DNA of 25,906 nt, from IMG/VR virus record IMGVR_UViG_2740892258_000020. One strand, 5' to 3'. A program made the position numbers and the translations under genes. The DNA is from a virus (Duplodnaviria; Heunggongvirae; Uroviricota; Caudoviricetes). The notes beneath the pieces are model-generated. The model searched no databases. It was not told where the DNA came from and saw only the letters and a program-made list of their open reading frames with translations. Below, piece by piece: positions 3,802 through 25,483 of the stretch. Each line of letters starts with the position of its first letter. Position 1 is the first letter of the stretch.

Positions 3802-3933
3802 TACTGTAGCTCTCTTCGTGTTCACGGGCACCCCCAACTACCTCTAGGGTAAACATTCTATCGAAAGTATACGCATACTGGCAAAAAAATAGGCAGGTAT
3901 TTTCTGAAATGGGATCAATCAAACCACATAGGG

Positions 3934-3977
3934 TTGAAATAACGTGAGTTATGCATTTATTATTACCTTTGCGGTAA
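3934..3977 (+). promoter_or_regulatory. sigma70-like promoter (TTGAAA-17/18-TATTAT) overlapped at the -10/+1 region by operator palindrome site 2 (ATTACC-TTTGC-GGTAA, 3962..3977)
   Basis: Good -35 and -10 hexamers with correct spacing; palindrome begins inside the -10. Points toward the Bro-N gene. Confidence 0.5.
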
Positions 3978-4069
3978 ATTTACATCGCACTCCTCTTGTG
4001 CCATAGTAATCGGGCACTGGAAAAATCCAGTGCCGGGATTGGCGTCCCGGATTACTAAAAGGCGCATTC

Positions 4070-4090
4070 ACCGCGCAAGCGGTTTTTTTA
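4070..4090 (+). terminator. intrinsic terminator-like hairpin (CCGC-GCAA-GCGG with GNRA loop, then 7 T) inside the 5-prime leader of the Bro-N gene
   Basis: ACCGCGCAAGCGGTTTTTTTAT about 100 nt downstream of the promoter and about 155 nt upstream of the Bro-N ATG; preceded by two further stem-loops (4011..4036 and 4034..4050). Confidence 0.4.
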
Positions 4091-4246
4091 TGCGTATAGC
4101 ACGGCCACATTCGTATTATGGTGGGCTGTGTGGGGGCACCGAAAGGTGCGCCGGGTCCTTTTAGCCGGTTACGCCAACCCTGCACAGTTCACCACCAACC
4201 GATTGGCGTCGGTAGTGGTGATTAACCAGACTAAAAGGTAACCACT

Positions 4247-4942
4247 ATGACAGCTACAAAAAGCACGTCCATTTTTTCTTTCGAATCCCAAGCCGATATA
4301 CGGGTAATCGTCATTAATGGTGAGCCATGGTTTATCGCTTCAGATGTTTGTCGGGCTATAGGCATAGCAAATCATCGAGATGCTGTTCGAAAACTTGATG
4401 ATGATGAGAAGGGCGTCGCTTCAACCGACACCCCTGGCGGTGAGCAAGAATCGATCATCATCTCCGAGTCAGGCCTCTACACACTGATCCTCCGCTGCCG
4501 CGACGCAGTGACACCAGGCACTATCCCCTACCGCTTTCGTAAATGGGTTACAGGTGAGGTTCTTCCTCAGATCCGCCGCACCGGAAGTTACATTAAAAAC
4601 TCGCTCCCGCAGGAAGAACGCATAAAGATGGTTGCCGACCAGGTAGCCAACGCCACAGCATCAGCAGTGATGCAGGCAATGAAGATAGAGAACAAAACCT
4701 ACAGTGCCCCACTGAAGCCCGGCTACCGCAGCCTGATTCATTCGCCGTCTGGTGTTCTCGGCCTGACGGAGAACTCACTGCTGATGAATCTGCTGAACCA
4801 GTTACAGGAAGACGGGCACGACGTATCGGGCGCGGCGGCGGAGCTGACCACCATGTTCTGCTACATCGTCGGTGTGAGCAAGTGCCTGCGTGATATCCAG
4901 ACGCACGCGGAGTACATCAACGACAAGGCTGGGTTCTTCTGA
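4247..4942 (+). CDS. Bro-N domain phage antirepressor-like protein (231 aa) with a C-terminal domain shared with the 85-aa protein
   Basis: N-terminus FSFESQADIRVIVINGEPWFIASDVCRAIGIANHRDAVRKLDDDEK...ESGLYTLILRCRDAVTPGTIPYRFRKWVTGEVLPQIRRTG is the canonical Bro-N (phage antirepressor N-terminal) signature. Confidence 0.8.
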   Translation: MTATKSTSIFSFESQADIRVIVINGEPWFIASDVCRAIGIANHRDAVRKLDDDEKGVASTDTPGGEQESIIISESGLYTLILRCRDAVTPGTIPYRFRKWVTGEVLPQIRRTGSYIKNSLPQEERIKMVADQVANATASAVMQAMKIENKTYSAPLKPGYRSLIHSPSGVLGLTENSLLMNLLNQLQEDGHDVSGAAAELTTMFCYIVGVSKCLRDIQTHAEYINDKAGFF

Positions 4943-4979
4943 CGGGCGGCGGCACATGGATGTGCCTTTAAAATAATCA

Positions 4980-5023
4980 TTGGCGATGTGATGTAGATTC
5001 GCGTAATATTACCTTACGGGTAA
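4980..5023 (+). promoter_or_regulatory. sigma70-like promoter (TTGGCG-18-TAATAT) overlapped by operator palindrome site 3 (ATTACC-TTACG-GGTAA, 5008..5023)
   Basis: Same promoter/operator geometry as at 3934..3977; about 60 nt upstream of the 210-aa gene. Confidence 0.45.
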
Positions 5024-5082: not shown

Positions 5083-5715
5083 ATGAAAACAAATACAACA
5101 AGAAAAGCGATGCCATACATTATCCCAGAAGCAGATTTCGACAGAAAACTGAACATGTCTGAGAAGAACACTAGTCACACCGAAAGCTACTTAGCGAAAG
5201 GTGTGGTTGATTTCGTTCTTCCGGGATTCACAACACCTTATGGTTATCGCCTTGTAAAATCTTGTAATGGCGATCATTACAGAATGATTACTACCAGCGA
5301 TACTCCAGAAACGGTGTATGCGGTTAAGTTAATCTTTCGGGAAGATATCGTCGAAGCTAAAAGAACATGTACGCAGATCATGGTATGGCGTACGCCTAAT
5401 GTTATTCATGACCGTGCTGTTCATGGTTTGCCTCAGATTTTTTTTCAGTTCTTCCTAGAGCAATATGCGATCGTTGTATCTGATGAGCAACAAACAATCG
5501 ATGGGAGAAGATTCTGGGAAAGAATGATTTCTTGGGCTATAAACACCCCGGGATATAATGTATACGTTTCAGATGGCTCTGAAGAAGATAGACCTCTTAG
5601 CTTCATGACATCATGGGATGATTTCTATAGCCAGTGGGCTGATTTCTGTTGGGGCAGTGATAAAGATGTGCATACCCACAGACTACTGGTTATAAGCAAA
5701 GATAAACTGCATTAA
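5083..5715 (+). CDS. hypothetical cargo protein (210 aa), monocistronic
   Basis: ATG with GGGAGGA RBS 5 nt upstream; followed by a strong intrinsic terminator; AT-rich; no recognisable motif. Confidence 0.7.
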   Translation: MKTNTTRKAMPYIIPEADFDRKLNMSEKNTSHTESYLAKGVVDFVLPGFTTPYGYRLVKSCNGDHYRMITTSDTPETVYAVKLIFREDIVEAKRTCTQIMVWRTPNVIHDRAVHGLPQIFFQFFLEQYAIVVSDEQQTIDGRRFWERMISWAINTPGYNVYVSDGSEEDRPLSFMTSWDDFYSQWADFCWGSDKDVHTHRLLVISKDKLH

Positions 5716-6857: not shown

Positions 6858-9800
6858 CTATTTCATCTGCTCTTCAACTTTATTTAGTAACGGTGATATT
6901 GCCCACAGGTTCTGAAAAGGTAGCATTTTACGGACCGCGTGGGTTTGCTGGCTGTCAAATTCTCCGTTAAGTACACCATTCGCAACCGTCGCGGCATCAC
7001 CGCCAAGATCAAAGGTAGGACCAAGTAAAGCACCAATAGCATTACGACTCTGAAACCTTGATACCGGAGGCGCACCAAACATCGCGCCAAGACCAAACCT
7101 ACCGCCGCTTATGTTCTCAACGGTATTCAGCGGCTCAGAGAGCCAGCCAAGCATTCCGCCCCGGTCGATCCCCTCTTTCACAAGGTTATTCCAGCTGTAG
7201 TCAATATCGCGACCGCTTAACTTCTGTTTCATCATATAGACCATTGAGCCAAGCGCAATCGTGCCAAGCGCACCAAGATAGAATGCAGCATCGCCCTGCT
7301 GGATACCAGATACCAGCACCCTGTTATGCTGTGCGAAGATAAACGTTTTGAACTGCGTGATCATCTTCCAGCCTTCTTTACTAAAAAACAGCGGTGTATC
7401 ACCTACGCCAGGCGTTACAATCACTGAGTCTACATCTTTCAGCACTGCAGACTGGAAAATCTCTCTAGCGAAACGGTCATCCCACAGATGACTATGCCCG
7501 GTTAACAGCCCGTCCATATCCTCTCCGTGCTTCCCGAATTGCTCCCCGATTCGGCGCAGAACATCTTCATTGATGCCGACCTGTGCCATCTTCCGCATTT
7601 CACTTTTGGAGAGCGTGCCACCAGCAGAAACTTGGCGAGCCGCGTCAAGTATCCTCGACTGCACTATCATCCCGGACCATGATTTAAGTGCGCTGTTCCA
7701 CTGATTCATCAGCGTCCAGTTACCGAATTTCTGCGTCATCCAGTTCAGGCCTCGCTCAGCGGCGCTTCTCCGGCTATATGGGTCAGTAAGATCCGCTATA
7801 GCCTTTGTACGCGTAGACAGGACATAATCAAGCCCAACGGCCATTTCTCGCAAATCCCTGGTTGCAATTTTCACTGAGTCCATATTTTTAAGCATGCTTA
7901 CCATTGGTCCGAGAGATTTTCTCAGGCCATGCTGCATCATCGGTCGCATCAGATCAGTTGCAGCGGAGACAGTCATTCCACCAAGCAAACGGAGGAAGTT
8001 AATATTCCTAGCAACTCGCCCGGCACGAACAAAGAAACTGCGTGGATCTTGAGGTGCACCGTAAGTACCAAGCAGTCGATCACGCATAGCCGTAATATCC
8101 CTAATATCAGCCTCCCGTTGCTTCTCAAGAACTGCACGTCGTTTAGGCGTTTTAGCCTCTTTTATTAGCCGGGTATATTCCTCACTAACCTGACGGATTT
8201 GCTCCCCCATATCTTTACGGCCAAACTGCGCAGTCAGCTCAATTTCTGGTGCCACCTGCCGGAGATAACTTTCCATGATGTAGTTAACATCTGATTCAAG
8301 AAAATCTTCTATACGCTCATCAGGAATAAGCAGCGTTCTGCTTTTAGTGAAACCAGCCCGACCAACGAGTCTCTCTGGGATAATATCGGCTGGTACAAGC
8401 CCGGAAGGTGCACCTATTATTTTATTCACGATCTCGTCAGCAGCGTCCTCTGCTTCCTCTCGGGATAGAGGCTCCATCTGCTTCAGTGCTCGTTCGCGGC
8501 TTGCATTCAGCCTTGTGGTTGAATTTGCCCGTTTTTGCAGTCGGCGAAGCTCAGAACGATATTTCCGTGGATTATCCAGCAACTCCATATGGCGCTGATA
8601 GACAGGAAGCTCACTCTTTGCCTGCGCTATATCATCAAGGCGTGTTTTAAGGTCAGAGCTTTCTTTCATCATTCTTGCCTGAAGTTTTTCTGATGAAGTC
8701 TCGGCCAACTCTTTTTCTATTCTTGTAAGACGCGCCTGTGTGTCAGTCTCCTGAGATATAAGCTTATTTCGTTTATCCAGTTCTTCCATGAGTAGAATTT
8801 TTTTACCAGACCATTTCTCCGCTTCAGCGATTTCACTAGCGAGAGCATCAGCGCGCGGTGCCGATTCCTCTGCAGTTTTTAGCAATGAATTTATCCTTTC
8901 AATTCGCTGACCTGCCTTGTCAGCACCTTTGGCACTAATCCCTTGTATCCAGTTGGCAATTCGCCCTCTGAATTCAGTGCGGTCGGAAAGTATCTTATCG
9001 AACTTATAAATGCGGGGAAGATAACTTTTCGCCGTCACGACATCGATATCCTCAGGAAGGATCCCCAGTTCCTGCATACGGGCTTTTGTGGTCTCGAAAA
9101 TGGGGCGGATTCTGGCAGCTGCTTGTGAAACCTCAGGAATATCACTCTGATCACCACGGCGCATAGCCATGCCAACAGCTTCATTGAAATCAATAAAGTT
9201 CATCCTCTTCACGCCGCGGGCGCTAACAGATTTGCTGTACTGCTGGTAAGCATCACGAGTGGCTTCCATCTGCTTATAAAGCATGGCGTCGTATTGCTTA
9301 ATCTTAGTCTCGACTGCCGTAAACGTAGCCAACCCCTCATCATTTTTGGCGAAGAAATAGTTATTTTCGGCAAGCTGCTGGTTAATCTGACGGGAGACAA
9401 GAGATGGTGATTGCGCCAAGCGGCCAGCAGGAGTGACACTCAACGTTTTGTTAGCAAGTCCAAGTCCAGCGAGCTGTTCCTGATCGAGTGTGGTATTGAA
9501 AACCTGAGCTGCACCAATGCTTTGAGGAGAATCCATACCTCGCAAATGATTACCTACTGAGTTAACCACTGCCTCGCGCGCGCCAGGTCCAGCAAGTAGC
9601 TGTGCACCAGCACCAAGGATCCCACCAACGAGAGCATCAACAACAACGTTCGATACGCTCTCCATCGGTGAGCGAGCTTCCTGAGTGGCCTGTAATGCGG
9701 CCTCTGAAGCAACACTGCCAGCAGCATTCGCCAGGGCAAAACGCCCGGCTGTTTCTGCAATACGACCGCCACGAACGACAGCGCCGAACGGAATAAACAT

Positions 9801-10247
9801 AGAAATCGCATTGAATGGATCTGCTAATCTCATTGCTACAGAAGAGACTGTACCAGCAAATCCCAAGCCTGAATTGTATTCCATGTCAGCTCTCTGCTGA
9901 TCGATTCGATGTTTAATTGCCATTGTTTCTTCAGGCGAACCGGAGTTGATAAACGAATCTGCAAAATCTTCATAGCCTTTAATATCTGCTGCATCGTTAT
10001 CAAATGGGTTATATCCTTCAACCCTGTCAAACTGACTGAAAGGAGCACTGGCAATAAAGCTACCCAGCGTGTTATCTATACGAAATGCTGCTTGTCTAGA
10101 CCTTTGAACGCGTTGATCACTGGTAAATGGGTTCACAGCAGAAAGCAAAGAAGGTGTTTCCATATAGAAATTACTGTCATCAGGTGCTGCTATTTGCTGA
10201 ATATCCTCGCCAAGCAACTCTTTAGGATCCTGTTCATATATCGGCAT
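6858..10247 (-). CDS. large internal virion / DNA ejection protein (1129 aa), T7 gp16-position analogue
   Basis: Last and largest gene of the tube/core gene run; long coiled-coil-like central region (KTAEESAPRADALASEIAEAEK...); start overlaps the upstream gene stop. Assignment by position and size. Confidence 0.55.
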   Translation of the reverse strand: MPIYEQDPKELLGEDIQQIAAPDDSNFYMETPSLLSAVNPFTSDQRVQRSRQAAFRIDNTLGSFIASAPFSQFDRVEGYNPFDNDAADIKGYEDFADSFINSGSPEETMAIKHRIDQQRADMEYNSGLGFAGTVSSVAMRLADPFNAISMFIPFGAVVRGGRIAETAGRFALANAAGSVASEAALQATQEARSPMESVSNVVVDALVGGILGAGAQLLAGPGAREAVVNSVGNHLRGMDSPQSIGAAQVFNTTLDQEQLAGLGLANKTLSVTPAGRLAQSPSLVSRQINQQLAENNYFFAKNDEGLATFTAVETKIKQYDAMLYKQMEATRDAYQQYSKSVSARGVKRMNFIDFNEAVGMAMRRGDQSDIPEVSQAAARIRPIFETTKARMQELGILPEDIDVVTAKSYLPRIYKFDKILSDRTEFRGRIANWIQGISAKGADKAGQRIERINSLLKTAEESAPRADALASEIAEAEKWSGKKILLMEELDKRNKLISQETDTQARLTRIEKELAETSSEKLQARMMKESSDLKTRLDDIAQAKSELPVYQRHMELLDNPRKYRSELRRLQKRANSTTRLNASRERALKQMEPLSREEAEDAADEIVNKIIGAPSGLVPADIIPERLVGRAGFTKSRTLLIPDERIEDFLESDVNYIMESYLRQVAPEIELTAQFGRKDMGEQIRQVSEEYTRLIKEAKTPKRRAVLEKQREADIRDITAMRDRLLGTYGAPQDPRSFFVRAGRVARNINFLRLLGGMTVSAATDLMRPMMQHGLRKSLGPMVSMLKNMDSVKIATRDLREMAVGLDYVLSTRTKAIADLTDPYSRRSAAERGLNWMTQKFGNWTLMNQWNSALKSWSGMIVQSRILDAARQVSAGGTLSKSEMRKMAQVGINEDVLRRIGEQFGKHGEDMDGLLTGHSHLWDDRFAREIFQSAVLKDVDSVIVTPGVGDTPLFFSKEGWKMITQFKTFIFAQHNRVLVSGIQQGDAAFYLGALGTIALGSMVYMMKQKLSGRDIDYSWNNLVKEGIDRGGMLGWLSEPLNTVENISGGRFGLGAMFGAPPVSRFQSRNAIGALLGPTFDLGGDAATVANGVLNGEFDSQQTHAVRKMLPFQNLWAISPLLNKVEEQMK

Positions 10248-12994
10248 TATTTGCCCCCTGCGTATATATTGCTCGGAAGGTAATTGGCTGAACCATAACC
10301 GAATGGTTTGGTCAGATCTGGAGGAGTATATCCATCTTTATTGCTGAACTGCGGCAGCGGATTGCCTTCTCTCCGCACTCTAGCCTCATCAACACGCTGT
10401 TGCTGGAACTGAATGGTTTGCCTGTACATTGGAGATGTCAGCTGATCCGGCTTGAAACGAACAGGGAGACCATTTTCTCCAATATAATTTCTCGGTTCTA
10501 TCGCTCCGTTTGCGTCAGGCTGTAAAACCATAACAGCATAACTCCTATCCCTTGCCGTAAGGCCATCAGAAACAAGTATTAAGTCCGTATCACTGCGAGG
10601 ACCGCCAAAGGATTTTGATTTAAGCTCGCGTTTTTCCTGCTCCCACTGCCCCTGTATCCAGTTACCAGCACCATTATTTACTCCGTACAATGCCTCAGGT
10701 GCATACTTCATAACCTCTGCTTTGCCATTAACTGTAGAAACTCCCCAGGTGGTTCTGATCATGGCATTGGTCATTTTCTCAGCCTGTTCTGCATCGCCAC
10801 CTGTCTGTACAAAGTTAGCATCGTAAATTGTCTGGTAATCTCGCTGATAGGCCGCATTTGATTTTCCTGGATCGGTAATATCCGGAGACCACGAACCAAA
10901 GGAAGTCAGACTGCTGGCGTTATTTTGTGCAGCAGTTGCCCTCGCCGCGACATATTTTTTGTCTCGCATGGCAGTGGAAAGCATCTGTTTCATTCGGTCA
11001 TCCTGTTGGAACACCTGGCTGTAAGCCATATCAACAGCCTTATCCTCCGGCACGCCAGCGCGGGAATAATCGTAAACCTTGCCGTAAAATGCCATCGTAC
11101 TTTTATCAAGTGTTGCCGCTGCCGCCGGATTATTATCAAATAACTGACCGTAGAATTTTGCCATCGGGACAACCAGCGCAGGATCTCTTGATGTTGCTCC
11201 ACTGTTAAGCATTGTTTTAACCTGAGTTGGTATCATGCCGCTTTTAGTTGTGACGGTGACCAGTGTATTGATGCTCTGCGGATCAGATATGGAAAACGAA
11301 GGCGCGATATCCTGCGCGAAATAACGGTCTACCGCTGCCTGATTGTTTTTGTCGTTCGGGTCCAGCGGGAAGTTATTTTGCATTGAAGACACGAACCTGT
11401 TTCTTCCCTGCTGAATCTCCCACTCCCTATCCATCTCTTTAAATTTGGCCTGCATTTTCTCCCAGCGTTGCTGGTTAGCTGCAAATCCAGGAGCGTTTGG
11501 ATCCTGTGGACGTAAACGTTCAAGAATGTCTTGTCGTCCTTCTGGAGTGAGGTCTTTAGCGGCACCAATGACACCTCCATATTGTATCTGCGCCTGCATA
11601 TCCTTCCACTTCATAGCGCCAATGCGCGGACCATTGGCCCGGATAAAATCGTCCTCAGAAGGTAACTTCTCAGGTTTCAATCCTTCATCAAGGGCTGAAT
11701 ATGCATCTTTAACTACGGTGCTAAGCTGGTCCGCATACTGCTGGCGGTACTGATTTCTCAGCTCATTAGCCTGCCTCAATGCCTGTATTTGCATTTGAGG
11801 GCTCATAGCGTCAAATGCCGCATTGCCCGTATAACGCTTAGGTGAATCAAGGTTAGTTAGACCAAGGGATGCCGAGATACCAGTTTCAAGCTGTTCGGTG
11901 CTATAAGGCATACTGCCATTTTCGTGTTTAATAATCCCAGCACATAAAGCAGCTAGTGTCTTTGGGTTAGAGATATCAAGCTGATCATTCTCCCCAACAC
12001 CAAGCTCACTACACAATGCCCTAATATAAGCATCAGTATTATTACCATCACTAGCCGGAGCATAGCGATTAACAATCTCGCTAACGGTGTCATAGCCTTG
12101 ACGCTGGTAAGACAACATATTTTTACCCAACGCGCGGATTCCATGCTCAGGGGTAGCAAACGTTGCAAAACGTCCATCGCTACCGATCTGACCTTCCCAC
12201 GGGTTAGATTTGCTCGCTTCAATATTACCAGGGTTATTATTACGTAAACCACGAGCATCCAATGAATTACCATGTGATATTGCACGACTCACACCATCAA
12301 GATCCCCTGGCTCTCCATTAACCTGAAGAAACTCGTTGTATTTTTGAGCGATATTTCCTATCCATGCTTGCTGCCCCATTTGTTCCTTGAGCTGAGTTTT
12401 CTGCTGAACACGCCACCCATCAGGAAGCCCATGTGCATCAGCGTATTGATCAATAGATTCAAATCGCTGCTTGGCTAAATCGACAAATGCTTGGTTATCG
12501 CTATATAGCCCCGCAGACTGAGTGACAGCCAATGCATTTCCTGACAAATACGTTTGATCTTGGAATTGCTGAAACTGCCCAACTTCATATCGACGTGCCT
12601 GATTGTAATAAGACTGCATAGACTGCTGGAGTTGAAAGGATAATTTATTCCTTTCCTCACTTTCAGGAATTGAGCCTAATAATGCCTGAGCCCTTTCCTG
12701 CATATTTTTCATAACAGCGTCACTCTGACCAAGAGCGTTTTTACCCTGTTTAGAAATCAGCCCATTTTCAGGGTTGTTAATCTGGTCATCTGCAAATTGG
12801 TTAAATTGCAGTAACGCCTCCTGAGCCATAGCAACATTCGCTTTCTGCCTGGCTTCACCATATGCCACCGCATACTGATCTGCGACATTCGCCAGCACCT
12901 GACCTGCTTGAGGAACATCGAAGGTCTGAAAACCACCGGTTTGCACACCACGACTTTGCACCTGGCGTCCGGATGTAGTAGGAACAACTGGCAT
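10247..12994 (-). CDS. internal virion protein (915 aa), T7 gp15-position analogue; contains a conserved-looking block (LRNNNPGNIEASKSNPWEGQ...FATFATPEHGIRALGKN) that may be a cell-wall-interacting domain
   Basis: Position and size in the ejection-protein run; Gln/Asn-rich. Domain call is tentative recollection only. Confidence 0.5.
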   Translation of the reverse strand: MPVVPTTSGRQVQSRGVQTGGFQTFDVPQAGQVLANVADQYAVAYGEARQKANVAMAQEALLQFNQFADDQINNPENGLISKQGKNALGQSDAVMKNMQERAQALLGSIPESEERNKLSFQLQQSMQSYYNQARRYEVGQFQQFQDQTYLSGNALAVTQSAGLYSDNQAFVDLAKQRFESIDQYADAHGLPDGWRVQQKTQLKEQMGQQAWIGNIAQKYNEFLQVNGEPGDLDGVSRAISHGNSLDARGLRNNNPGNIEASKSNPWEGQIGSDGRFATFATPEHGIRALGKNMLSYQRQGYDTVSEIVNRYAPASDGNNTDAYIRALCSELGVGENDQLDISNPKTLAALCAGIIKHENGSMPYSTEQLETGISASLGLTNLDSPKRYTGNAAFDAMSPQMQIQALRQANELRNQYRQQYADQLSTVVKDAYSALDEGLKPEKLPSEDDFIRANGPRIGAMKWKDMQAQIQYGGVIGAAKDLTPEGRQDILERLRPQDPNAPGFAANQQRWEKMQAKFKEMDREWEIQQGRNRFVSSMQNNFPLDPNDKNNQAAVDRYFAQDIAPSFSISDPQSINTLVTVTTKSGMIPTQVKTMLNSGATSRDPALVVPMAKFYGQLFDNNPAAAATLDKSTMAFYGKVYDYSRAGVPEDKAVDMAYSQVFQQDDRMKQMLSTAMRDKKYVAARATAAQNNASSLTSFGSWSPDITDPGKSNAAYQRDYQTIYDANFVQTGGDAEQAEKMTNAMIRTTWGVSTVNGKAEVMKYAPEALYGVNNGAGNWIQGQWEQEKRELKSKSFGGPRSDTDLILVSDGLTARDRSYAVMVLQPDANGAIEPRNYIGENGLPVRFKPDQLTSPMYRQTIQFQQQRVDEARVRREGNPLPQFSNKDGYTPPDLTKPFGYGSANYLPSNIYAGGK

Positions 12995-20023: not shown

Positions 20024-20316
20024 TCCTGTTCACTGGCCTCTTTGGCCATCTTCAAATACTGTTCAGGACAATGCGCCATAACGCGCTGAAACAGTTCCAG
20101 CGCCAGATTGCGTTGCCCCTCATTAAATGCCATTGCCATAGCGTCCATCGGTGAGATAGCGGAAAACACACGGCCTTTCTCCAGCACCGACCAGACAACG
20201 CGACGCCCCTGTTCACTGCTCATGACAAAGCGAATGTCATCAATTTCACGCTGTGCCATGTCACGTTGCTTACGGGCGTTTTCTTCTTTCAGTTGATCGT
20301 CTTCGTAATCTGTCAT
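20020..20316 (-). CDS. small acidic protein (98 aa) between portal and scaffold
   Basis: ORF with ATGA-type overlaps to the portal stop and the scaffold start; function unknown. Confidence 0.5.
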   Translation of the reverse strand: MTDYEDDQLKEENARKQRDMAQREIDDIRFVMSSEQGRRVVWSVLEKGRVFSAISPMDAMAMAFNEGQRNLALELFQRVMAHCPEQYLKMAKEASEQE

Positions 20317-21992
20317 TGTGATTGCCCACCCTGACCACTAACTGCATTCGCCATAGCTGACAAAACACTCGGATCCGAAGTTTTAGCTTCGCTTAGCGTC
20401 TTGGCACCCTGTGCCGCCGCCATCCCCATCGCCATCATTTGTTGCTGCTGTTGCTGCTGTGCCCGTTGCTGGCGAGCCTGCTCAACCTGTTCCTGCGGAA
20501 CAATGACGGTTGGAGACACTCCGGACATATCAGCGAATGCATCGATCGCCTGATCAACGTTGAGTTTGTCGAGAGCTTCTGGTTTCGCTTGCGCAAGTTG
20601 ACCAATGAAGTTAACCGTGGACGCCAGACTGGACAGGCCGATAGACTTCTGCGCCTGAGCCATGACGGAAATGTATTCGACCTTCAGGGGCATACCTTCC
20701 ATCACGTCTGGCGGTGGCGGCAGCATGTTTTTACGCACCATCATCGAGAAAGAGCGGTCAATGAGAGGATTAAGACATTCGTCGTTCAGACGCTCCAGAA
20801 CCGGCCCCAACATCAGAAGTTTTTCTTCTTTCATTTCGATCACCGCTTCAACAGGCATCGAGCGGGTATTGATGTTCTGCAACATCATGAACAGATCGAC
20901 AAAGTAGGCGCTGTTAATGATTTGACGAGTGTCCTGAATGTCTGCCACCAAATCTGCTGTACTGGGGTTAACCAGATAAGCAGGCCTGAAACCATCCTGA
21001 CCAGTAATCTGATCGATATACGTGATGTCGCCAGGAAGAAGGGAGGCACGCTGATTCTTGAGGGAAGTCGGAGCAACCATCGGCGGATTGGTGGCTTTAT
21101 CAATCAACTGCGACTTGCGCTTCTGGAGAAGCTGCAATGCCTTAACAGGTCCAAGCGCCAGCATACCCGGGCATGATGATCCATAAACATCTTCGCCGTT
21201 AACTTCCCAGCGCGGAGCCATAATTGGAAACTCATCGAATCCGGACTCACGCAACAACTTGTCGTTATCGCCACCAACCTCGTAATAAACCGATTTGAAT
21301 GGCTTGTTCTTGCTATCCAGCTTCGATGTATCGCGGTCAATGTTCGGGTAAACCGAATGCATCACTTCAATCCACTTCTCGTAGGTGCCGCTTTCCCACA
21401 TGCTTTTTACGGATTCGCTGACGTTATTTAGCCCGAACTCCTGAACAAGCTGACGAACAGTCATAGAGAACTTGCGAAAACAGGTGTCCACACTGCCACG
21501 AGGTGAGTTAGCCAGGTAGTAACTGCCTATCGGGAATGGCATTGTGCGAATGATGTCCTCGTCATCCTCCAGCACCGCCATTGCACCAGTGCTGTATGTG
21601 CCGAGGCTTCCGTATAACTGCGGAAGAGACTGGTAGAGATTCGACTTATTGAACATATCGTTCATGCGGTTCTGCACCGCCTCGAGCCACAACTTAACAG
21701 GACCATAATCCATCATTTCAGGATCTGGCGTAGCCAGGCGAAACCACGGACGCGCAGGGCTTGTGATGCCTGACATCATGCCGCTGGCGAGAGTGCGCGC
21801 CGCCATAGTCCCGGTCGAATCAATAATGCGTGTATTGCGTCGATCGTTACGGTTGACTTCAGAAGTCAGAAAGCGGGAACCACGCGGGTTGATGTAATCA
21901 CTCAACTCGCGCCAGTGCGGCTCGAACGACTGACGCTCGCTTTCAAGTTGTGCGAACTGTTTGTTCAATCGCTCTTTAGTTGTTTCCGCCAT
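20313..21992 (-). CDS. portal (head-to-tail connector) protein, T7 gp8-like (559 aa)
   Basis: Size close to T7 gp8; C-terminal region (EQARQQRAQQQQQQQMMAMGMAAAQGA) strongly resembles the T7 gp8 C-terminus (EEQKQQKMAQQSMQMGMDNGAAALAQGMAAQA) as I recall it. GGAG RBS. Confidence 0.8.
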   Translation of the reverse strand: MAETTKERLNKQFAQLESERQSFEPHWRELSDYINPRGSRFLTSEVNRNDRRNTRIIDSTGTMAARTLASGMMSGITSPARPWFRLATPDPEMMDYGPVKLWLEAVQNRMNDMFNKSNLYQSLPQLYGSLGTYSTGAMAVLEDDEDIIRTMPFPIGSYYLANSPRGSVDTCFRKFSMTVRQLVQEFGLNNVSESVKSMWESGTYEKWIEVMHSVYPNIDRDTSKLDSKNKPFKSVYYEVGGDNDKLLRESGFDEFPIMAPRWEVNGEDVYGSSCPGMLALGPVKALQLLQKRKSQLIDKATNPPMVAPTSLKNQRASLLPGDITYIDQITGQDGFRPAYLVNPSTADLVADIQDTRQIINSAYFVDLFMMLQNINTRSMPVEAVIEMKEEKLLMLGPVLERLNDECLNPLIDRSFSMMVRKNMLPPPPDVMEGMPLKVEYISVMAQAQKSIGLSSLASTVNFIGQLAQAKPEALDKLNVDQAIDAFADMSGVSPTVIVPQEQVEQARQQRAQQQQQQQMMAMGMAAAQGAKTLSEAKTSDPSVLSAMANAVSGQGGQSQ

Positions 21993-22006
21993 TTCAATGA
22001 CTCCGG

Positions 22007-22213
22007 TTACTGACCAAGCAGCGTTTTACCGCTGGTATTAGCGGTTGATGTGTCGCCCTGAGAACCGGTAAGCAGCGTAGAACTACGACCAGCAGCAGCG
22101 CGACGGCGACGTGTTTCTTCGTCGCGGGCATCAACAACGGCGGCATCCTGCTCCTGTGGTGCTGCCTGAACTTCTGGTGTTGCAGGCACTGATGGTGAGC
22201 TACCCATGCACAT
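22007..22213 (-). CDS. small low-complexity protein (68 aa) immediately upstream of portal
   Basis: ATG preceded by CGGAGTCATTGAT, nearly the same translation-initiation context as portal (CGGAGTCATTGAA); Ala/Pro/Gln/Arg-rich; coding status uncertain. Confidence 0.4.
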   Translation of the reverse strand: MCMGSSPSVPATPEVQAAPQEQDAAVVDARDEETRRRRAAAGRSSTLLTGSQGDTSTANTSGKTLLGQ

Positions 22214-22240
22214 ATCAATGACTCCGTACGCAATTAAATT

Positions 22241-22262
22241 ATTACCAATTTAACCACATATG
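22241..22262. promoter_or_regulatory. conserved 22-bp element ATTACC-N5-AACCACATATG, copy 2, upstream of the portal operon
   Basis: ATTACCAATTTAACCACATATG; see copy 1 at 2462..2483. Confidence 0.45.
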
Positions 22263-22281
22263 ATTTATTTATCGTAGAAGG

Positions 22282-22318
22282 TTGACATTTAACGCGTTAA
22301 TTATTACCTTTCAGGTAA
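22282..22318 (+). promoter_or_regulatory. TTGACA -35-like hexamer followed by operator palindrome site 4 (ATTACC-TTTCA-GGTAA, 22303..22318); possible plus-strand promoter for the tRNA/moron unit
   Basis: Consensus TTGACA at 22282..22287 with the palindrome centred where a -10 would be; the -10 match itself is poor. Confidence 0.4.
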
Positions 22319-22650
22319 CCAAAGGGCTCATTCTGGTTACTAACCTGACTGGCTTGTCGTTAAATTAAACAGGTGGAGTGAGCTTTTATTTTGAGCAGTA
22401 CGGCGTATGGCACATGCGCCGATAGCGGTCTGGATACGTTTAAGGGGCACCCTCCCTTGCTCGGGCAAACGAACCAGGTAGCCGGAATGTGCAAGTCGAG
22501 CGGTTTTATTCCGCGCACGGGGATTCACCATCCCGGCGATTCGGTGTGACGCCTCGGAAGAGACGAGGGTACAACGATGAGAGCATTTATGGAGCCGCGA
22601 CAAAGTGTGGCGCCTTAACAGGCTAAGTGCTCTCAGCGTTGTGGCATTAG

Positions 22651-22727
22651 CTCAGTTGGACAGAGCAACCGCCTTCTAAGCGGTTGGTCGCAGGTTCGAA
22701 TCCTGCATGCCACGCCAGAATCACGCC
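22651..22727 (+). tRNA. tRNA-Arg, anticodon UCU (reads AGA), phage-encoded
   Basis: Full cloverleaf: acceptor GTGGCAT/ATGCCAC, D-arm GCTC-AGTTGGACA-GAGC, anticodon stem ACCGC/GCGGT with loop CTTCTAA, T-arm GCAGG-TTCGAAT-CCTGC, discriminator G and encoded CCA. Similar to but distinct from host argU as I recall it. Confidence 0.9.
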
Positions 22728-22760
22728 TAAGGACCGTGATGCCAGAAGTTCCAGGTGCTT

Positions 22761-22804
22761 GGCGGTGATGGTTTCCCTTGAAGGACTATCACCGCCCTTT
22801 TTAC
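22761..22804 (+). terminator. terminator-like hairpin (9-bp stem GGCGGTGAT/ATCACCGCC, large loop) followed by CTTTTTA, downstream of the tRNA
   Basis: Perfect inverted repeat and T-run about 35 nt after the tRNA 3-prime end. Confidence 0.5.
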
Positions 22805-22880
22805 AGCAGGACGCCATTGCGATGACTTCATGCTGTAAACCCGTACAGCCACGGAAGGCATAACTCATTGCTTCCAGTTC

Positions 22881-22904
22881 GCCCGGTTCGCCGGGCATTT
22901 TTTT
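22881..22904 (+). terminator. strong intrinsic terminator GCCCGG-UUCG-CCGGGC followed by 7 U, 12 nt upstream of the 140-aa gene start
   Basis: Perfect 6-bp GC stem, UUCG tetraloop, TTTTTTT run. Confidence 0.7.
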
Positions 22905-22915
22905 AAGGTGAGATC

Positions 22916-23338
22916 ATGAAAACAATTGATATGTTGGCTAAGTATCTAAATGAATGGCCATTAAAATATTCTCGTATCGTTCAGGCTGAAGACTGCGTTT
23001 TTTATGGCGTTTTTGCTGGTAATGAAATGCATTACGAAGTAATTCAGAGTGAGGGACTGGCCGGGTTAACGCTTAGCGATGACCATGGAATAGGAGTTAC
23101 TTGCCATGACTGGATTTCAGCGCAGAAAACTGAAATGGAAAAAGGCAATGTGTTTGATATTTCTCGCGCTGTATACGCCAAAGAAAAAAGTGATGATGAT
23201 TACATGCGCGAAAACTTATACAACATGAAGTTACAATGCCTGGCTGAAGTGCTTAGTAAAAGATCTTTACTTGATGTGGTTGGTGCTGAGCAGGACGCCA
23301 AGGCAATCAACGCCGCATTCGATAAAATAACCTTCTAA
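22916..23338 (+). CDS. hypothetical moron protein (140 aa), opposite strand to the flanking terminase and portal genes
   Basis: ATG with AAGGTGAG RBS; AT-rich; followed by terminator at 23361..23385; no domain recognised. Confidence 0.65.
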   Translation: MKTIDMLAKYLNEWPLKYSRIVQAEDCVFYGVFAGNEMHYEVIQSEGLAGLTLSDDHGIGVTCHDWISAQKTEMEKGNVFDISRAVYAKEKSDDDYMRENLYNMKLQCLAEVLSKRSLLDVVGAEQDAKAINAAFDKITF

Positions 23339-23360
23339 CGCCGTGACATGTCACAATCAG

Positions 23361-23385
23361 CCCGCCGATTCGCGGGCTTTTTTAT
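23361..23385 (+). terminator. rho-independent terminator AGCCCGCCGATTCGCGGGCT followed by TTTTTTAT
   Basis: GC-rich stem and T-run downstream of the 140-aa gene; overlaps the 3-prime end of the convergent large-terminase gene. Confidence 0.6.
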
Positions 23386-24857
23386 GCAAAAGGATCATAG
23401 TCTGTGATGGCTTTGCCTTGCTGGTTCTGCTGCCCGGGAATTCGCAGACGCTTCGACACAGGGAACGCAAACGTCAGCAGTAGCGCATCGCCTTTACCAG
23501 GAGAACGCCCAAGTCGCTCTTTGATATCTTCCTTCGGTTCGATAACGATTTTACCGTCCACGCGAACTTTGTACTCTGCCGTCGACAGGTCGTCCGCTGT
23601 TTCCTGGTCATCCAGCATGCCGCCGAGCCTCAGCCATGTCTTGCATGAGTTGAACATCTCCCCACGCTTGTTGAGCATCTGCGGGTCAGTAGACGCGCCA
23701 CCGAACGGAACAAGTTGCCATGTACGACCCCAGCCGTCACCGATTGACTTCAAACCGGTTCCGTAACCGAAGTCGATGAACACCGCGTCAGCCTGATACT
23801 GGTCTTCAAAGTCAGCGATACGCTTCGCCATAATCAGATCGTCGGTAGTCTTGTTGCCAGTCCACAGCACCTTACTGTGTAGCCCCTGCCGCAGGTATAT
23901 CACCGCGTCATCAACGCCTGAATATGCCGGGTCAACACCGATTATCACCGGAGCATGTGCCACCTGCGCAGCGGTTACCACCCGTTTCATTGCCTCGTCA
24001 GTAAGACCGGTAGGGATAAACTGCAATTCAGATGCATCAGGGAATATGCCACGCACACGGATTTTAACGAAGTCGCTATCTTCCCCATAGTCATCAACCC
24101 ATTTCTGCAACTGCTGTTTGTTGGTGCCTTCCACCGTCCTGCTGTCAATCTGCGCAGTTTTCCAGCGGTGTTTGTATTTGCGGAAACATTCACGGAAACG
24201 CCCGGTGTTACGTGTAGGGTTTCCGAAAGCCACCCAGATAATCTCAGTGTCTTCGTCCGTTAGCGCACCCTCGGCAACTTCCCACACCAGATCCGCAATG
24301 TTCGACGCTTCATCAAATACCACGATGATGCGTTTACGCTCGTTGTGTAGTCCGGCGAATGCCTCAGTGTTGTGCTCAGACCAGGGGATTGCGTCAGCTC
24401 GCCACCGCTTGTCGTGCCCAGGGTCATTGCTGTACATCGCGGTAGCGGTACAGGTAAACCAGTCTTTCGTGATAGCAAGGTTTGACCACTTGATAATTTC
24501 CGGCCAGGTCTTCGTTCGTAGCTGGTTGTCGGTGTTGGCGGTCACCACGACCTTACAATCCTCGCAAGTGGACATGCCCCAGTTGATCAGCATTGAGATG
24601 AATGCGGATTTACCAATACCGTGACCAGAAGCACGTGCCAGCATAAGCGGCTGATATCGCGTCTCTGGATTCTGCAGGTGATCACGTATCTCTCGGAACG
24701 CATCGGCCTGCCACTGACGTGGACCGGTGGCATGTGCCAGTTCAGTACCCTCTTCCCCCCACGGGAACGCATAGAGGGCATAGCCAAGCGGATCGTGAGT
24801 GAACCCTGCAATATCCTCGATTAACTGCTCTTCAGGAGATAACGCTGTATCTGTCAC
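23382..24857 (-). CDS. terminase large subunit (491 aa)
   Basis: Walker A-like ARASGHGIGKS, Walker B-like IIVVFDEAS, and a C-terminal nuclease-like region (VIIGVDPAYSG...VFIDFGYG); 4-nt overlap with the small-subunit gene. Confidence 0.9.
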   Translation of the reverse strand: MTDTALSPEEQLIEDIAGFTHDPLGYALYAFPWGEEGTELAHATGPRQWQADAFREIRDHLQNPETRYQPLMLARASGHGIGKSAFISMLINWGMSTCEDCKVVVTANTDNQLRTKTWPEIIKWSNLAITKDWFTCTATAMYSNDPGHDKRWRADAIPWSEHNTEAFAGLHNERKRIIVVFDEASNIADLVWEVAEGALTDEDTEIIWVAFGNPTRNTGRFRECFRKYKHRWKTAQIDSRTVEGTNKQQLQKWVDDYGEDSDFVKIRVRGIFPDASELQFIPTGLTDEAMKRVVTAAQVAHAPVIIGVDPAYSGVDDAVIYLRQGLHSKVLWTGNKTTDDLIMAKRIADFEDQYQADAVFIDFGYGTGLKSIGDGWGRTWQLVPFGGASTDPQMLNKRGEMFNSCKTWLRLGGMLDDQETADDLSTAEYKVRVDGKIVIEPKEDIKERLGRSPGKGDALLLTFAFPVSKRLRIPGQQNQQGKAITDYDPFA

Positions 24858-25466: not shown

Positions 25467-25483
25467 GTTACCGTTGTGGTAAT
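25467..25483. promoter_or_regulatory. operator palindrome site 5 (GTTACC-GTTGT-GGTAAT) within a tandem array of GGTAAT/TTACC half-sites upstream of the small-terminase gene
   Basis: GTGGTAATAGTTACCGTTGTGGTAATAGTACC (25458..25489) contains TTACC-N5-GGTAA flanked by further GGTAAT and TACC half-sites. Confidence 0.45.

Follow-up and report, generated by a model that had tools for sequence, protein, structure and literature searches.

RESULTS

An insert opposed to the late genes of a Uetakevirus

The DNA analysed here is a 25,906-nucleotide (nt) stretch (IMG/VR record IMGVR_UViG_2740892258_000020; hereafter the window) of an epsilon15/phiV10-like podovirus of the genus Uetakevirus. Its gene order matches that of the phiV10 record, and positions 21900-23500 are 94-98% identical to PAS61, HEMP4, phiV10, ZX5 and others. 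The minus strand carries the portal gene (20313-21992; PF12236, E=3e-187), a 68-amino-acid (aa) homologue of gp3 (22007-22213), the large terminase gene (23382-24857, named by homology to phiV10 gp2) and the small terminase gene. Between the gp3 homologue and the large terminase gene sits an insert on the opposite strand; that this unit opposes its late neighbours had been proposed in a first-pass annotation of the window and is borne out by the portal domain match and the terminase homology. Read from 5' to 3', the plus-strand insert holds a putative promoter overlapped by an operator, the structured RNA that is the subject of this report, a tRNA-Arg(UCU), two terminators and an open reading frame (ORF) of 140 aa.

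A conserved structured RNA between a putative promoter and the tRNA

The conserved core of the RNA spans 22401..22570 (nhmmer profile E=9e-36, one copy in the window), and it and all elements described in this section are read from the plus strand. The core begins with helix P1 (22401-22409/22413-22421, with a GCA loop), which is followed by helices P2a (22429-22433/22474-22478) and P2b (22437-22440/22468-22471), an invariant 19-mer, GGTAGCCGGAATGTGCAAG (22477-22495), and a variable hairpin (22500-22514). Helix P3, GGGAT-TCACC-ATCCC (22520-22524/22530-22534), carries in its loop the sequence CACC (22526-22529), which pairs with GGTG (22543-22546) in a pseudoknot, and helix P4, CCTCG-GAAGAGA-CGAGG (22552-22556/22564-22568), has the loop GAAGAGA. 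The hairpins of P3 (22520-22534) and P4 (22552-22568) are those that the first-pass annotation had quoted; both exist, and compensatory changes keep both of them in related phages. Behind the core a closing helix, P5 (22572..22641), pairs CAACG-AT-GAGAGCATT (22572-22588) with AAGTGCTCTC-AG-CGTTG (22625-22641) around a variable insert, and its last pair uses G22641, which is nucleotide 1 of the tRNA. In some variants (L255, 3690-3783; L009, SPN1S; loci of our comparative set are cited with the prefix L) this P5 insert is ~95 nt long and contains two T-arm-like hairpins, CTGG-TTCAATT-CCAG and GTCCG-TTCGATT-CGGAC. Ahead of the core lies a less conserved 5' leader (22319..22400), recognized from the sequence by a hairpin, GGTAACCA...TGGTTACT, and a module, GTCGTTAAAT...GGAGTGAGCT. 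Other Uetakeviruses also carry this module ahead of the core, and in lambdoid leaders it is located behind the terminator. Core and P5 together measure ~240 nt, and the whole non-coding unit through the first terminator (T1) roughly 490 nt.

A sensitive BLAST search with positions 22214-22640 revealed that the region is common to all Uetakeviruses and that 22400-22640 is ~82% identical to sequences of the lambdoid phages cdtI, mEp460, 2H10 and Ayreon as well as Stx2c- and some Stx2a-converting phages. In the alignment of these homologues the two sides of a helix change together: CCTCG/CGAGG becomes CCTGG/CCAGG, ACGA/TCGT becomes ACGC/GCGT and GGGAT/ATCCC, and CGGCG/CGCCG becomes CGGCA/TGCCG. 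The pseudoknot pairing co-varies as well, from CACC:GGTG to AACC:GGTT. For a quantitative evaluation we used a structure-blind MAFFT alignment of 31 diverse copies, in which 92.1% of the pair cells were paired, compared to 31-47% when the partners were slid by 1-3 columns. Double changes were observed in 17 of the 32 pairs, one of them in the pseudoknot, and 0 of 500 shuffles were as good. A model-based alignment of 101 hits (72 distinct) in 100 sources, which is biased towards the model, gave 92.0% paired cells and 16 of 28 pairs with double changes, again with 0 of 500 shuffles as good; over both analyses the slid controls ranged from 30 to 47%. For P5 a column-wise count on the ungapped alignment, in which register shifts are present, was not above the shuffles; when its own 5' and 3' strands were matched, however, the helix reached -27.9 kcal/mol versus -21.5 kcal/mol for swapped strands, and 0 of 10000 permutations were as good. 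Several G.U pairs are unchanging across both alignments; on the complementary strand they would read A.C, which identifies the plus strand as the one that encodes the RNA. Minimum free energy folding of the 331 nt alone was marginal (z = -1.84 for the plus and -2.4 for the minus strand versus shuffles); the evidence for the structure is comparative, not thermodynamic.

We defined the family by helices P1-P4, the invariant GGUAGCCGGAAUGUGCAAG, a pseudoknot in which the P3 loop pairs with GGUG, and an orientation that follows the early transcript, all of which are present in the window. The corresponding covariance model, R1, was built on a trimmed alignment of 156 positions with 28 pairs. It scores 145.5 bits in the window (22401-22571, E about 1e-42), 137.2 bits in phage P1, 152 bits in the Kosakonia sacchari chromosome, 132.8 bits in the APEC O78 prophage and 33.8 bits in a remnant in epsilon15, and it has no significant match in HK022, ST64B or the K-12 prophage e14. 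With Rfam 15 we found no match for the core at the gathering threshold or at E<=10, whether the search was made with the window, the region 22150-23000 or the mEp460 leader; in the region only the tRNA and unrelated noise were matched. Nor did we find a published description of the core RNA, a passing mention in the older papers on put or on the P1 and epsilon15 genomes being possible, and the family thus appears to be previously undescribed. Of the readings that the first-pass annotation had offered for the sequence upstream of the tRNA, an independent structured RNA is strongly supported by the covariation, by the occurrence of the core without an adjacent tRNA in 87 of 132 loci and by its position 3' of a different tRNA in phage P1. 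Taken together, we consider it very probable that the region encodes a real, independent structured RNA of a family that is not in Rfam.

Several public records carry genes across the RNA or antisense to tRNA-Arg (L001, 3748-3999, phiV10 p04; L003, 2443-2811, mEp460 gp37; L013, 2426-2803; L007, 2406-2567). These protein-coding annotations are probably spurious.

Distribution and genomic context of the RNA family

The comparative set comprised 132 loci, on which the context counts are based, with 109 distinct core sequences drawn from IMG/VR, the window and phage records; a scan of IMG/VR with a 16-mer from the invariant block gave at least 120 loci. The breadth of taxa beyond phage collections and Escherichia coli is sampled poorly in this set, and all core copies with a known host come from enterobacterial hosts or their phages. 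In 29 of the 132 loci a tRNA-Arg(tct) of the same orientation starts ~164 nt behind the 16-mer. In 16 loci, belonging to phage P1 and related phages, a tRNA-Ile2(CAU), with the anticodon CAT, ends ~17 nt before the core on the same strand, and the remaining 87 have no adjacent tRNA. For genome contigs we also tried the pattern GGCACATGN{5,8}AGCGGTC, which proved too loose: among the 120 matches listed, 119 were chance matches and one, in Kosakonia sacchari (L137), was real.

In phage P1 (NC_005856) the core fills an unannotated 286-nt gap between trnI and ban, a placement that P1 and P7 share. This gap lies within the C1-controlled ban operon (Pban/Op72, a dicF-like region, trnA, trnT, tciABC, trnI, the gap, ban and dbn). 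We found no terminator-like site between the core and ban/dbn of P1, and the only strong terminator of the operon is located upstream of the core. In lambdoid phages the core homologue comes directly after the cI repressor gene and shares its orientation. A LexA/S24-type cI repressor was found upstream on the same strand in 59 loci, and the core lies downstream of a leftward promoter in at least 59, with no opposite-strand copy in the flanks scanned. RefSeq-annotated prophages show ymfT (cro) on one strand and, on the other, ymfK (cI), a terminator, a promoter, the RNA and yfdP-yfdQ-yfdR. The distance to the promoter is short: in the APEC O78 prophage ~50 nt separate the core from a preceding promoter with 11 of 12 consensus positions, the cores of L019 and L049 begin within about 7-10 nt of the -10 hexamer, and elsewhere the core begins 40-100 nt after it.

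When all complete E. coli genomes in RefSeq were searched by BLAST with the 173-nt core, the RNA was found in 1839 of 5426 genomes, at 2470 places of which 554 are on plasmids, and no annotated feature was present under any of the core matches listed. E. coli K-12, including its e14 prophage, is without the core, and this may be why the RNA escaped notice. Taken together, the family sits in early, immunity-repressor-controlled transcripts of three unrelated types of temperate enterobacterial phages, namely Uetakeviruses, N-less lambdoids and P1/P7. In every case these are the transcripts released first from repression: that of pL in lambdoids, that of Pban in P1 and, in the window, that of the operator-covered promoter.

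Some loci depart from the usual single copy. In L030 the core is present twice, at 4804-4957 and at 3997-4152, both times on the minus strand of the locus and ~650 nt apart, with an antisense membrane-protein ORF between the copies, and in L092 the promoter-proximal segment is duplicated around a similar insert. In epsilon15 itself (L002, 1814-1901) only a remnant of the core with an internal deletion is left and no tRNA is present, and the T2-type terminator and the downstream gene 50 are kept. A boxA-like sequence (TGCTCTTTAACAA / GCTCTTTAATAA) was seen just after the core in some lambdoid leaders, in L092 (about +129 past the 16-mer) as well as in L036 and L049; it adjoins a hairpin that could potentially terminate transcription in either direction.

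A putative promoter and its operator

The putative promoter of the plus-strand unit (22282..22318, plus strand) is of the sigma70 type, with a perfect -35 hexamer, TTGACA (22282-22287), a 17-nt spacer and the -10 hexamer TACCTT (22305-22310), which matches the consensus at 3 of 6 positions. A generic consensus promoter scan made no call at 22282-22318 because of this weak -10 hexamer, and we infer the promoter from its hexamers, the operator and its conservation in SPN1S-type phages, which carry an identical TTGACA-17-TACCTT together with the palindrome. The start site would lie at about 22317-22320. The operator-associated TTGACA of the first-pass annotation is present as described, since a perfect palindrome, TTACCTTTCAGGTAA (22304-22318), overlaps the -10 hexamer. 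Further copies of this operator (TTACCTNNNAGGTAA) were found at 2513-2527 (identical) and, with 1-2 mismatches, at 3838-3852, 3963-3977, 5009-5023 and 25468-25482, so that the window contains 6 such sites versus 0.5 expected by chance; the distribution suggests that one repressor may control all operator-bearing units of the window. At about the equivalent position, by alignment, the epsilon15 record has a repressor-binding site ('repressor; lysogeny'). Because the palindrome overlaps the -10 hexamer, recurs in the window and corresponds to an annotated repressor site in epsilon15, the plus-strand unit is most simply read as an early, repressor-controlled transcript.

The operator copies at 3838, 3963 and 5009 flank another module of the phage. 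At 4014-4199 we observed an IsrK-like RNA (76.7 bits) and a C4 antisense RNA (77.7 bits) in tandem, just upstream of a Bro-N domain protein (4247-4942) that is probably an antirepressor. This arrangement is a P1/P7-type immI module in a Uetakevirus.

The tRNA

The tRNA-Arg(UCU) is canonical and real, as the first-pass annotation had stated (ARAGORN; Rfam RF00005, 73.3 bits against a gathering score of 29), although it occupies 22641..22717 on the plus strand and not 22651-22727, which is 10 nt too high. Its CCA is encoded (GCCA, 22714-22717), and ARAGORN finds this one tRNA, Arg(tct), in the whole window. It is identical to E. coli K-12 argU at 64 of 77 positions (83%), with the differences mostly in the acceptor and anticodon stems. 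Phage-encoded argU-like tRNA-Arg(UCU) genes are annotated at the same position in several Uetakevirus records and in a Klebsiella prophage with the same portal-terminase arrangement. This part of the locus is thus an ordinary phage argU-like tRNA, the one peculiarity being that helix P5 of the RNA in front of it is closed by nucleotide 1 of the tRNA. Among the 414 arginine codons of 23 ORFs in the window, 53 are AGA and 36 are AGG (21.5%), compared to roughly 6-7% in E. coli genes, and the tRNA is therefore plausibly useful to the phage. The strongest local demand for it is in a 210-aa ORF (5083-5715), where AGA makes up 9 of 13 arginine codons, and the large genes at 6858-12994 are also rich in AGA and AGG.

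Terminators and the conserved order of downstream elements

Uetakeviruses and lambdoids share a common order of elements, which consists of the core, P5, the tRNA-Arg or a tRNA-like domain, an ATCACG hairpin, a T1-type terminator, a further hairpin or terminator and the first ORF. In the window the small hairpin is ATCACG-CCTAAGGAC-CGTGAT (22720..22740, plus strand), and the same hairpin stands after the tRNA-like domain in lambdoid leaders. The two terminator hairpins that the first-pass annotation had predicted between the tRNA and the 140-aa gene were both recovered, with U-tracts, by the terminator scan (22761-22796 and 22881-22896, plus strand). T1, GGCGGTGAT...ATCACCGCC followed by CTTTTT (22761..22802), has 14 pairs and is probably the 3' end of the non-coding unit; in the T1 slot of lambdoid leaders we found GGCGGT...ACCGCC with a U-tract and ACA, with compensatory changes. 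T2, GCCCGG-TTCG-CCGGGC followed by AT7 (22881..22904), stands immediately ahead of the ribosome-binding site of the 140-aa ORF and has an epsilon15 equivalent that is annotated as a rho-independent terminator. A third terminator, T3 (23359..23384, hairpin 23359-23378, plus strand), which is annotated in phiV10, would end the plus-strand unit before the convergent large terminase gene. By sequence T1, T2 and T3 all qualify as predicted intrinsic terminators, each with a GC-rich hairpin directly ahead of a U-tract; these 3 plus-strand sites compare with 1.6 expected when both strands are counted. The stretch of 84 nt that separates T1 from T2 (22797-22880, with the hairpin ACAGCA...TGCTGT) is conserved in Uetakeviruses and some lambdoid leaders (ACAGCAGGACGCCATTGCGATGAC...), regardless of the tRNA.

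Behind T2 follows the accessory ORF of 140 aa (22916..23338, plus strand, from the ORF list), which matches PHROG 4846 ('unknown function', E=1e-91) and has no Pfam, PADLOC or PDB match; other Uetakeviruses have different ORFs at this cargo position. The U-tract of the UUCG-loop terminator ends at 22904 and the ATG lies at 22916, in agreement with the first-pass annotation, which had placed this terminator just before the gene. Because only 11 nt separate the two, it is reasonable to suppose that expression of the gene would depend on read-through or antitermination, and lambdoid leaders likewise keep one or more terminators ahead of their first ORF. The label 'moron' that had been given to the 140-aa gene is doubtful: its sole visible promoter is overlapped by the phage operator, and the unit therefore resembles an early lytic transcript and not a gene expressed in the lysogen.

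In lambdoid leaders downstream of pL the slot of the tRNA-Arg is taken by a tRNA-like domain, GTGGTGAA..GCRCAGGCTGATGYGC..GCCGGAGATCAGCACCGG.CACCACAAC (L255, 3798-3930; L003, about 2744-2875; L019 and others). Some compensatory changes are seen within the domain; ARAGORN makes no tRNA call on it, and Rfam has no match. ST64B (L258, NC_004313, 27238-28053, minus strand) keeps the tRNA-like domain, the T1-type hairpin and a long hairpin in its early-left leader, and another 5' module of ~400 nt replaces the core. This module may be a second, separate leader RNA, and with the 5' part swapped in this way the RNA looks like a replaceable module. In the gap between ymfK and ymfJ of the K-12 prophage e14 (L257), only the first part of an ST64B-type leader is left.

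DISCUSSION

Relation to known phage RNAs

Among the described RNA families, GOLLD and ROOL are ornate, conserved prophage RNAs that typically lie beside tRNA genes. The core RNA resembles them in that it abuts a same-strand tRNA in 45 of 132 loci. It is, however, far smaller (~240 nt, or ~490 nt for the whole unit), belongs to enterobacterial hosts and phages and has a defined place in repressor-controlled early transcripts, and the GOLLD and ROOL covariance models gave no match at the gathering threshold or at E<=10. We also rejected an assignment to the Pas small RNAs (sRNAs), as these are Hfq-type sRNAs of ~84 nt in late regions (bioRxiv 10.64898/2026.05.13.724894).

A processed early RNA as a tentative model

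The model that we tentatively favour, with somewhat less than even confidence, is a processed early RNA that acts in its own right and not as a cis-acting leader. On induction or infection the unit would be transcribed from the repressor-controlled early promoter, and cleavage by ribonuclease P (RNase P) at the 5' end of the tRNA would release the structured RNA with a defined 3' end. Such a cut would be precise with respect to the RNA, since the last pair of P5 uses nucleotide 1 of the tRNA. In lambdoid leaders the tRNA-like domain occupies the slot of the tRNA. The released RNA may then act, possibly in trans, through its single-stranded, invariant 19-mer and its pseudoknot on a conserved host component, and not as a leader of the tRNA. 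The tRNA would separately provide AGA decoding for phage genes rich in AGA and AGG, and the 140-aa ORF would be reached only by those polymerases that pass T1 and T2. We favour this model because the copy of phage P1 lies mid-operon among other RNA genes without a downstream terminator, and epsilon15 and ST64B keep the terminators without an intact core. The tRNA or tRNA-like neighbour, the RNA's own conserved terminator and the invariance of the 19-mer across unrelated phages point in the same direction.

Several points weigh against a processed RNA of this kind. Its start site, its processing by RNase P, its stability and its termination at T1 are so far predictions. A search of the window for sequences antisense to the invariant segments gave only matches of 8-11 nt, which we judged to be about what chance provides. 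In an RNAalifold alternative, the 3' half of helix P1, GCACAU, pairs with AUGUGC of the 19-mer; both segments are invariant, and the fold may be dynamic. The invariance of the 16-mer in the IMG/VR loci is partly a matter of construction, as these were retrieved with it, although the 16-mer is also invariant in 11 full-length homologues obtained by BLAST. Finally, terminator-like hairpins and co-oriented ORFs without a visible promoter of their own follow the RNA in ~88% of the sampled loci, a layout that a cis-acting read-through element would explain equally well.

A possible cis-acting leader for antitermination

Such an element, a leader that promotes processive antitermination without a protein in the manner of HK022 put or Bacillus EAR, is possible but in our view not probable. 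According to this explanation, the nascent core would bind the elongation complex and carry the polymerase through T1 and T2, or through the lambdoid terminators, so that the 140-aa ORF or the early-left operon is expressed. The position of the RNA is consistent with this, as it is promoter-proximal (the 7-10 nt and 40-100 nt distances given above), and behind it Uetakeviruses and lambdoids have, on the same strand, 1-3 terminator-like hairpins and then ORFs without room for a promoter. The first early-left ORFs that we examined were yfdP-type or of 130-167 aa; none looked N-like by eye, no search for N having been made. Strictly invariant unpaired segments would also fit binding to a conserved machine such as RNA polymerase. 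That a put-like RNA is possible in related N-less lambdoids has been remarked independently (PMC12315714).

The put RNAs of HK022 (putL and putR) are RNA-only processive antiterminators of lambdoid phages; they lie downstream of both early promoters, pL and pR, and suppress termination in cis in a manner that depends on the zinc-binding domain of the RNA polymerase beta-prime subunit. A put element is ~70 nt long and consists of two stem-loops (PMC9378689). The core RNA resembles put in its position just downstream of the early leftward promoter of an N-less lambdoid, upstream of terminators and the early operon; it is also structured, and no gene for a protein partner is evident in its vicinity. 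Unlike put, the core has ~170 nt with four helices and a pseudoknot, more than twice the length of put, to which the ~70-nt closing helix is added. In phage P1 it stands mid-operon with no terminator behind it. Searches of the HK022 genome by blastn, nhmmer and the covariance model found nothing significant. EAR of Bacillus is a structured RNA inside an operon that promotes read-through of distal terminators. The mid-operon location of EAR resembles the P1 context of the core, but the two have no relation in sequence or structure. The P1 copy speaks against antitermination, with no terminator-like site before ban/dbn and the sole strong terminator upstream. Further, epsilon15 keeps T2 and the gene behind it with a mere core remnant, ST64B keeps the tRNA-like domain and the terminators without a core, and no second copy was found on the rightward operon in the flanks scanned. 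It is possible, though in our view not probable, that the core forms a second class of phage RNA, unrelated to put in structure, which needs no protein to reprogram the transcription elongation complex of the host, be it as a put-like processive antiterminator or as a conditional gate at the leader terminators. If antitermination does take place, it would explain early-left expression in N-less lambdoids, with the module having spread to P1 and the epsilon15-like phages.

A C4/CI-type regulator of the leader as an unlikely alternative

The C4 RNA of P1/P7, the CI RNA of P4 and IsrK are regulatory RNAs in the leaders of early or immunity operons, and they are matured by RNase P. An RNA of this type would be excised by RNase P and, acting in cis or in trans, base-pair with the leader from which it was cut; it would promote termination or block translation and thus be an immunity-like brake on the early operon; we regard this as unlikely. 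The resemblance to the C4/CI/IsrK group (Rfam clan CL00128) lies in the early leader and in the tRNA or tRNA-like domain (GTGGTGAA...CACCACAAC) directly after the core RNA. Terminators follow in the same leader, the invariant GCACAU of helix P1 and AUGUGC of the 19-mer are mutually complementary, and a C4/IsrK module is used elsewhere in the same phage. The core RNA folds differently, however, and the CL00128 models match the window only at 4014-4199, with no match in 22150-23000 or in the mEp460 leader. We identified no antisense target and, in the window search, no extended complementarity to one. The complementarity noted above amounts to only 6 nt and is internal to the RNA, and the copy of phage P1 is without a downstream terminator.

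Improbable readings: tRNA leader, protein gene or DNA site

The other readings that the first-pass annotation had offered for the region, a precursor leader 5' of the tRNA or a second tRNA that has decayed, would leave it with no function of its own, and we consider them very improbable. The region does abut a co-oriented tRNA, and T-arm-like hairpins occur in the P5 insert of some variants. However, ARAGORN and the Rfam tRNA model find no tRNA or tRNA-like match in 22330-22640, even at E<=10, the compensatory conservation extends to phages without a tRNA here, and in P1 the core lies 3' of a different tRNA.

There is likewise very little chance that the conservation reflects a protein gene (for example the 87-aa minus-strand ORF at 22340-22603, or mEp460 gp37) or a site acting at the DNA level (a binding site or a structure in single-stranded DNA): although ORFs are annotated in mEp460 (gp37), phiSTEC1575 (genes 15 and 16) and Tyrion (gp54), and stop-free frames are common in a GC-rich stretch, the records annotate different ORFs on different strands, the anchor spacings (34-58 nt and 48-58 nt) fall in all classes modulo 3 so that no conserved reading frame is possible, the helix substitutions are compensatory, with G.U pairs among them that would correspond to A.C mismatches on the opposite strand, and the orientation of the element invariably agrees with that of the adjacent tRNAs and of the early operon.

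Significance

The tRNA, the terminators and the promoter are ordinary parts of this finding. The RNA family itself, if upheld, would be an abundant and strongly constrained RNA, left unannotated both in phage P1, one of the best-studied phages, and in roughly one third of the complete E. coli genomes. It would be among the first things transcribed on derepression of these prophages. Our results also flag several overlapping protein annotations as probably spurious. The RNA offers a concrete candidate for how N-less lambdoids may pass the terminators of their early-left leaders; alternatively, it may be a new phage RNA that targets a host function.

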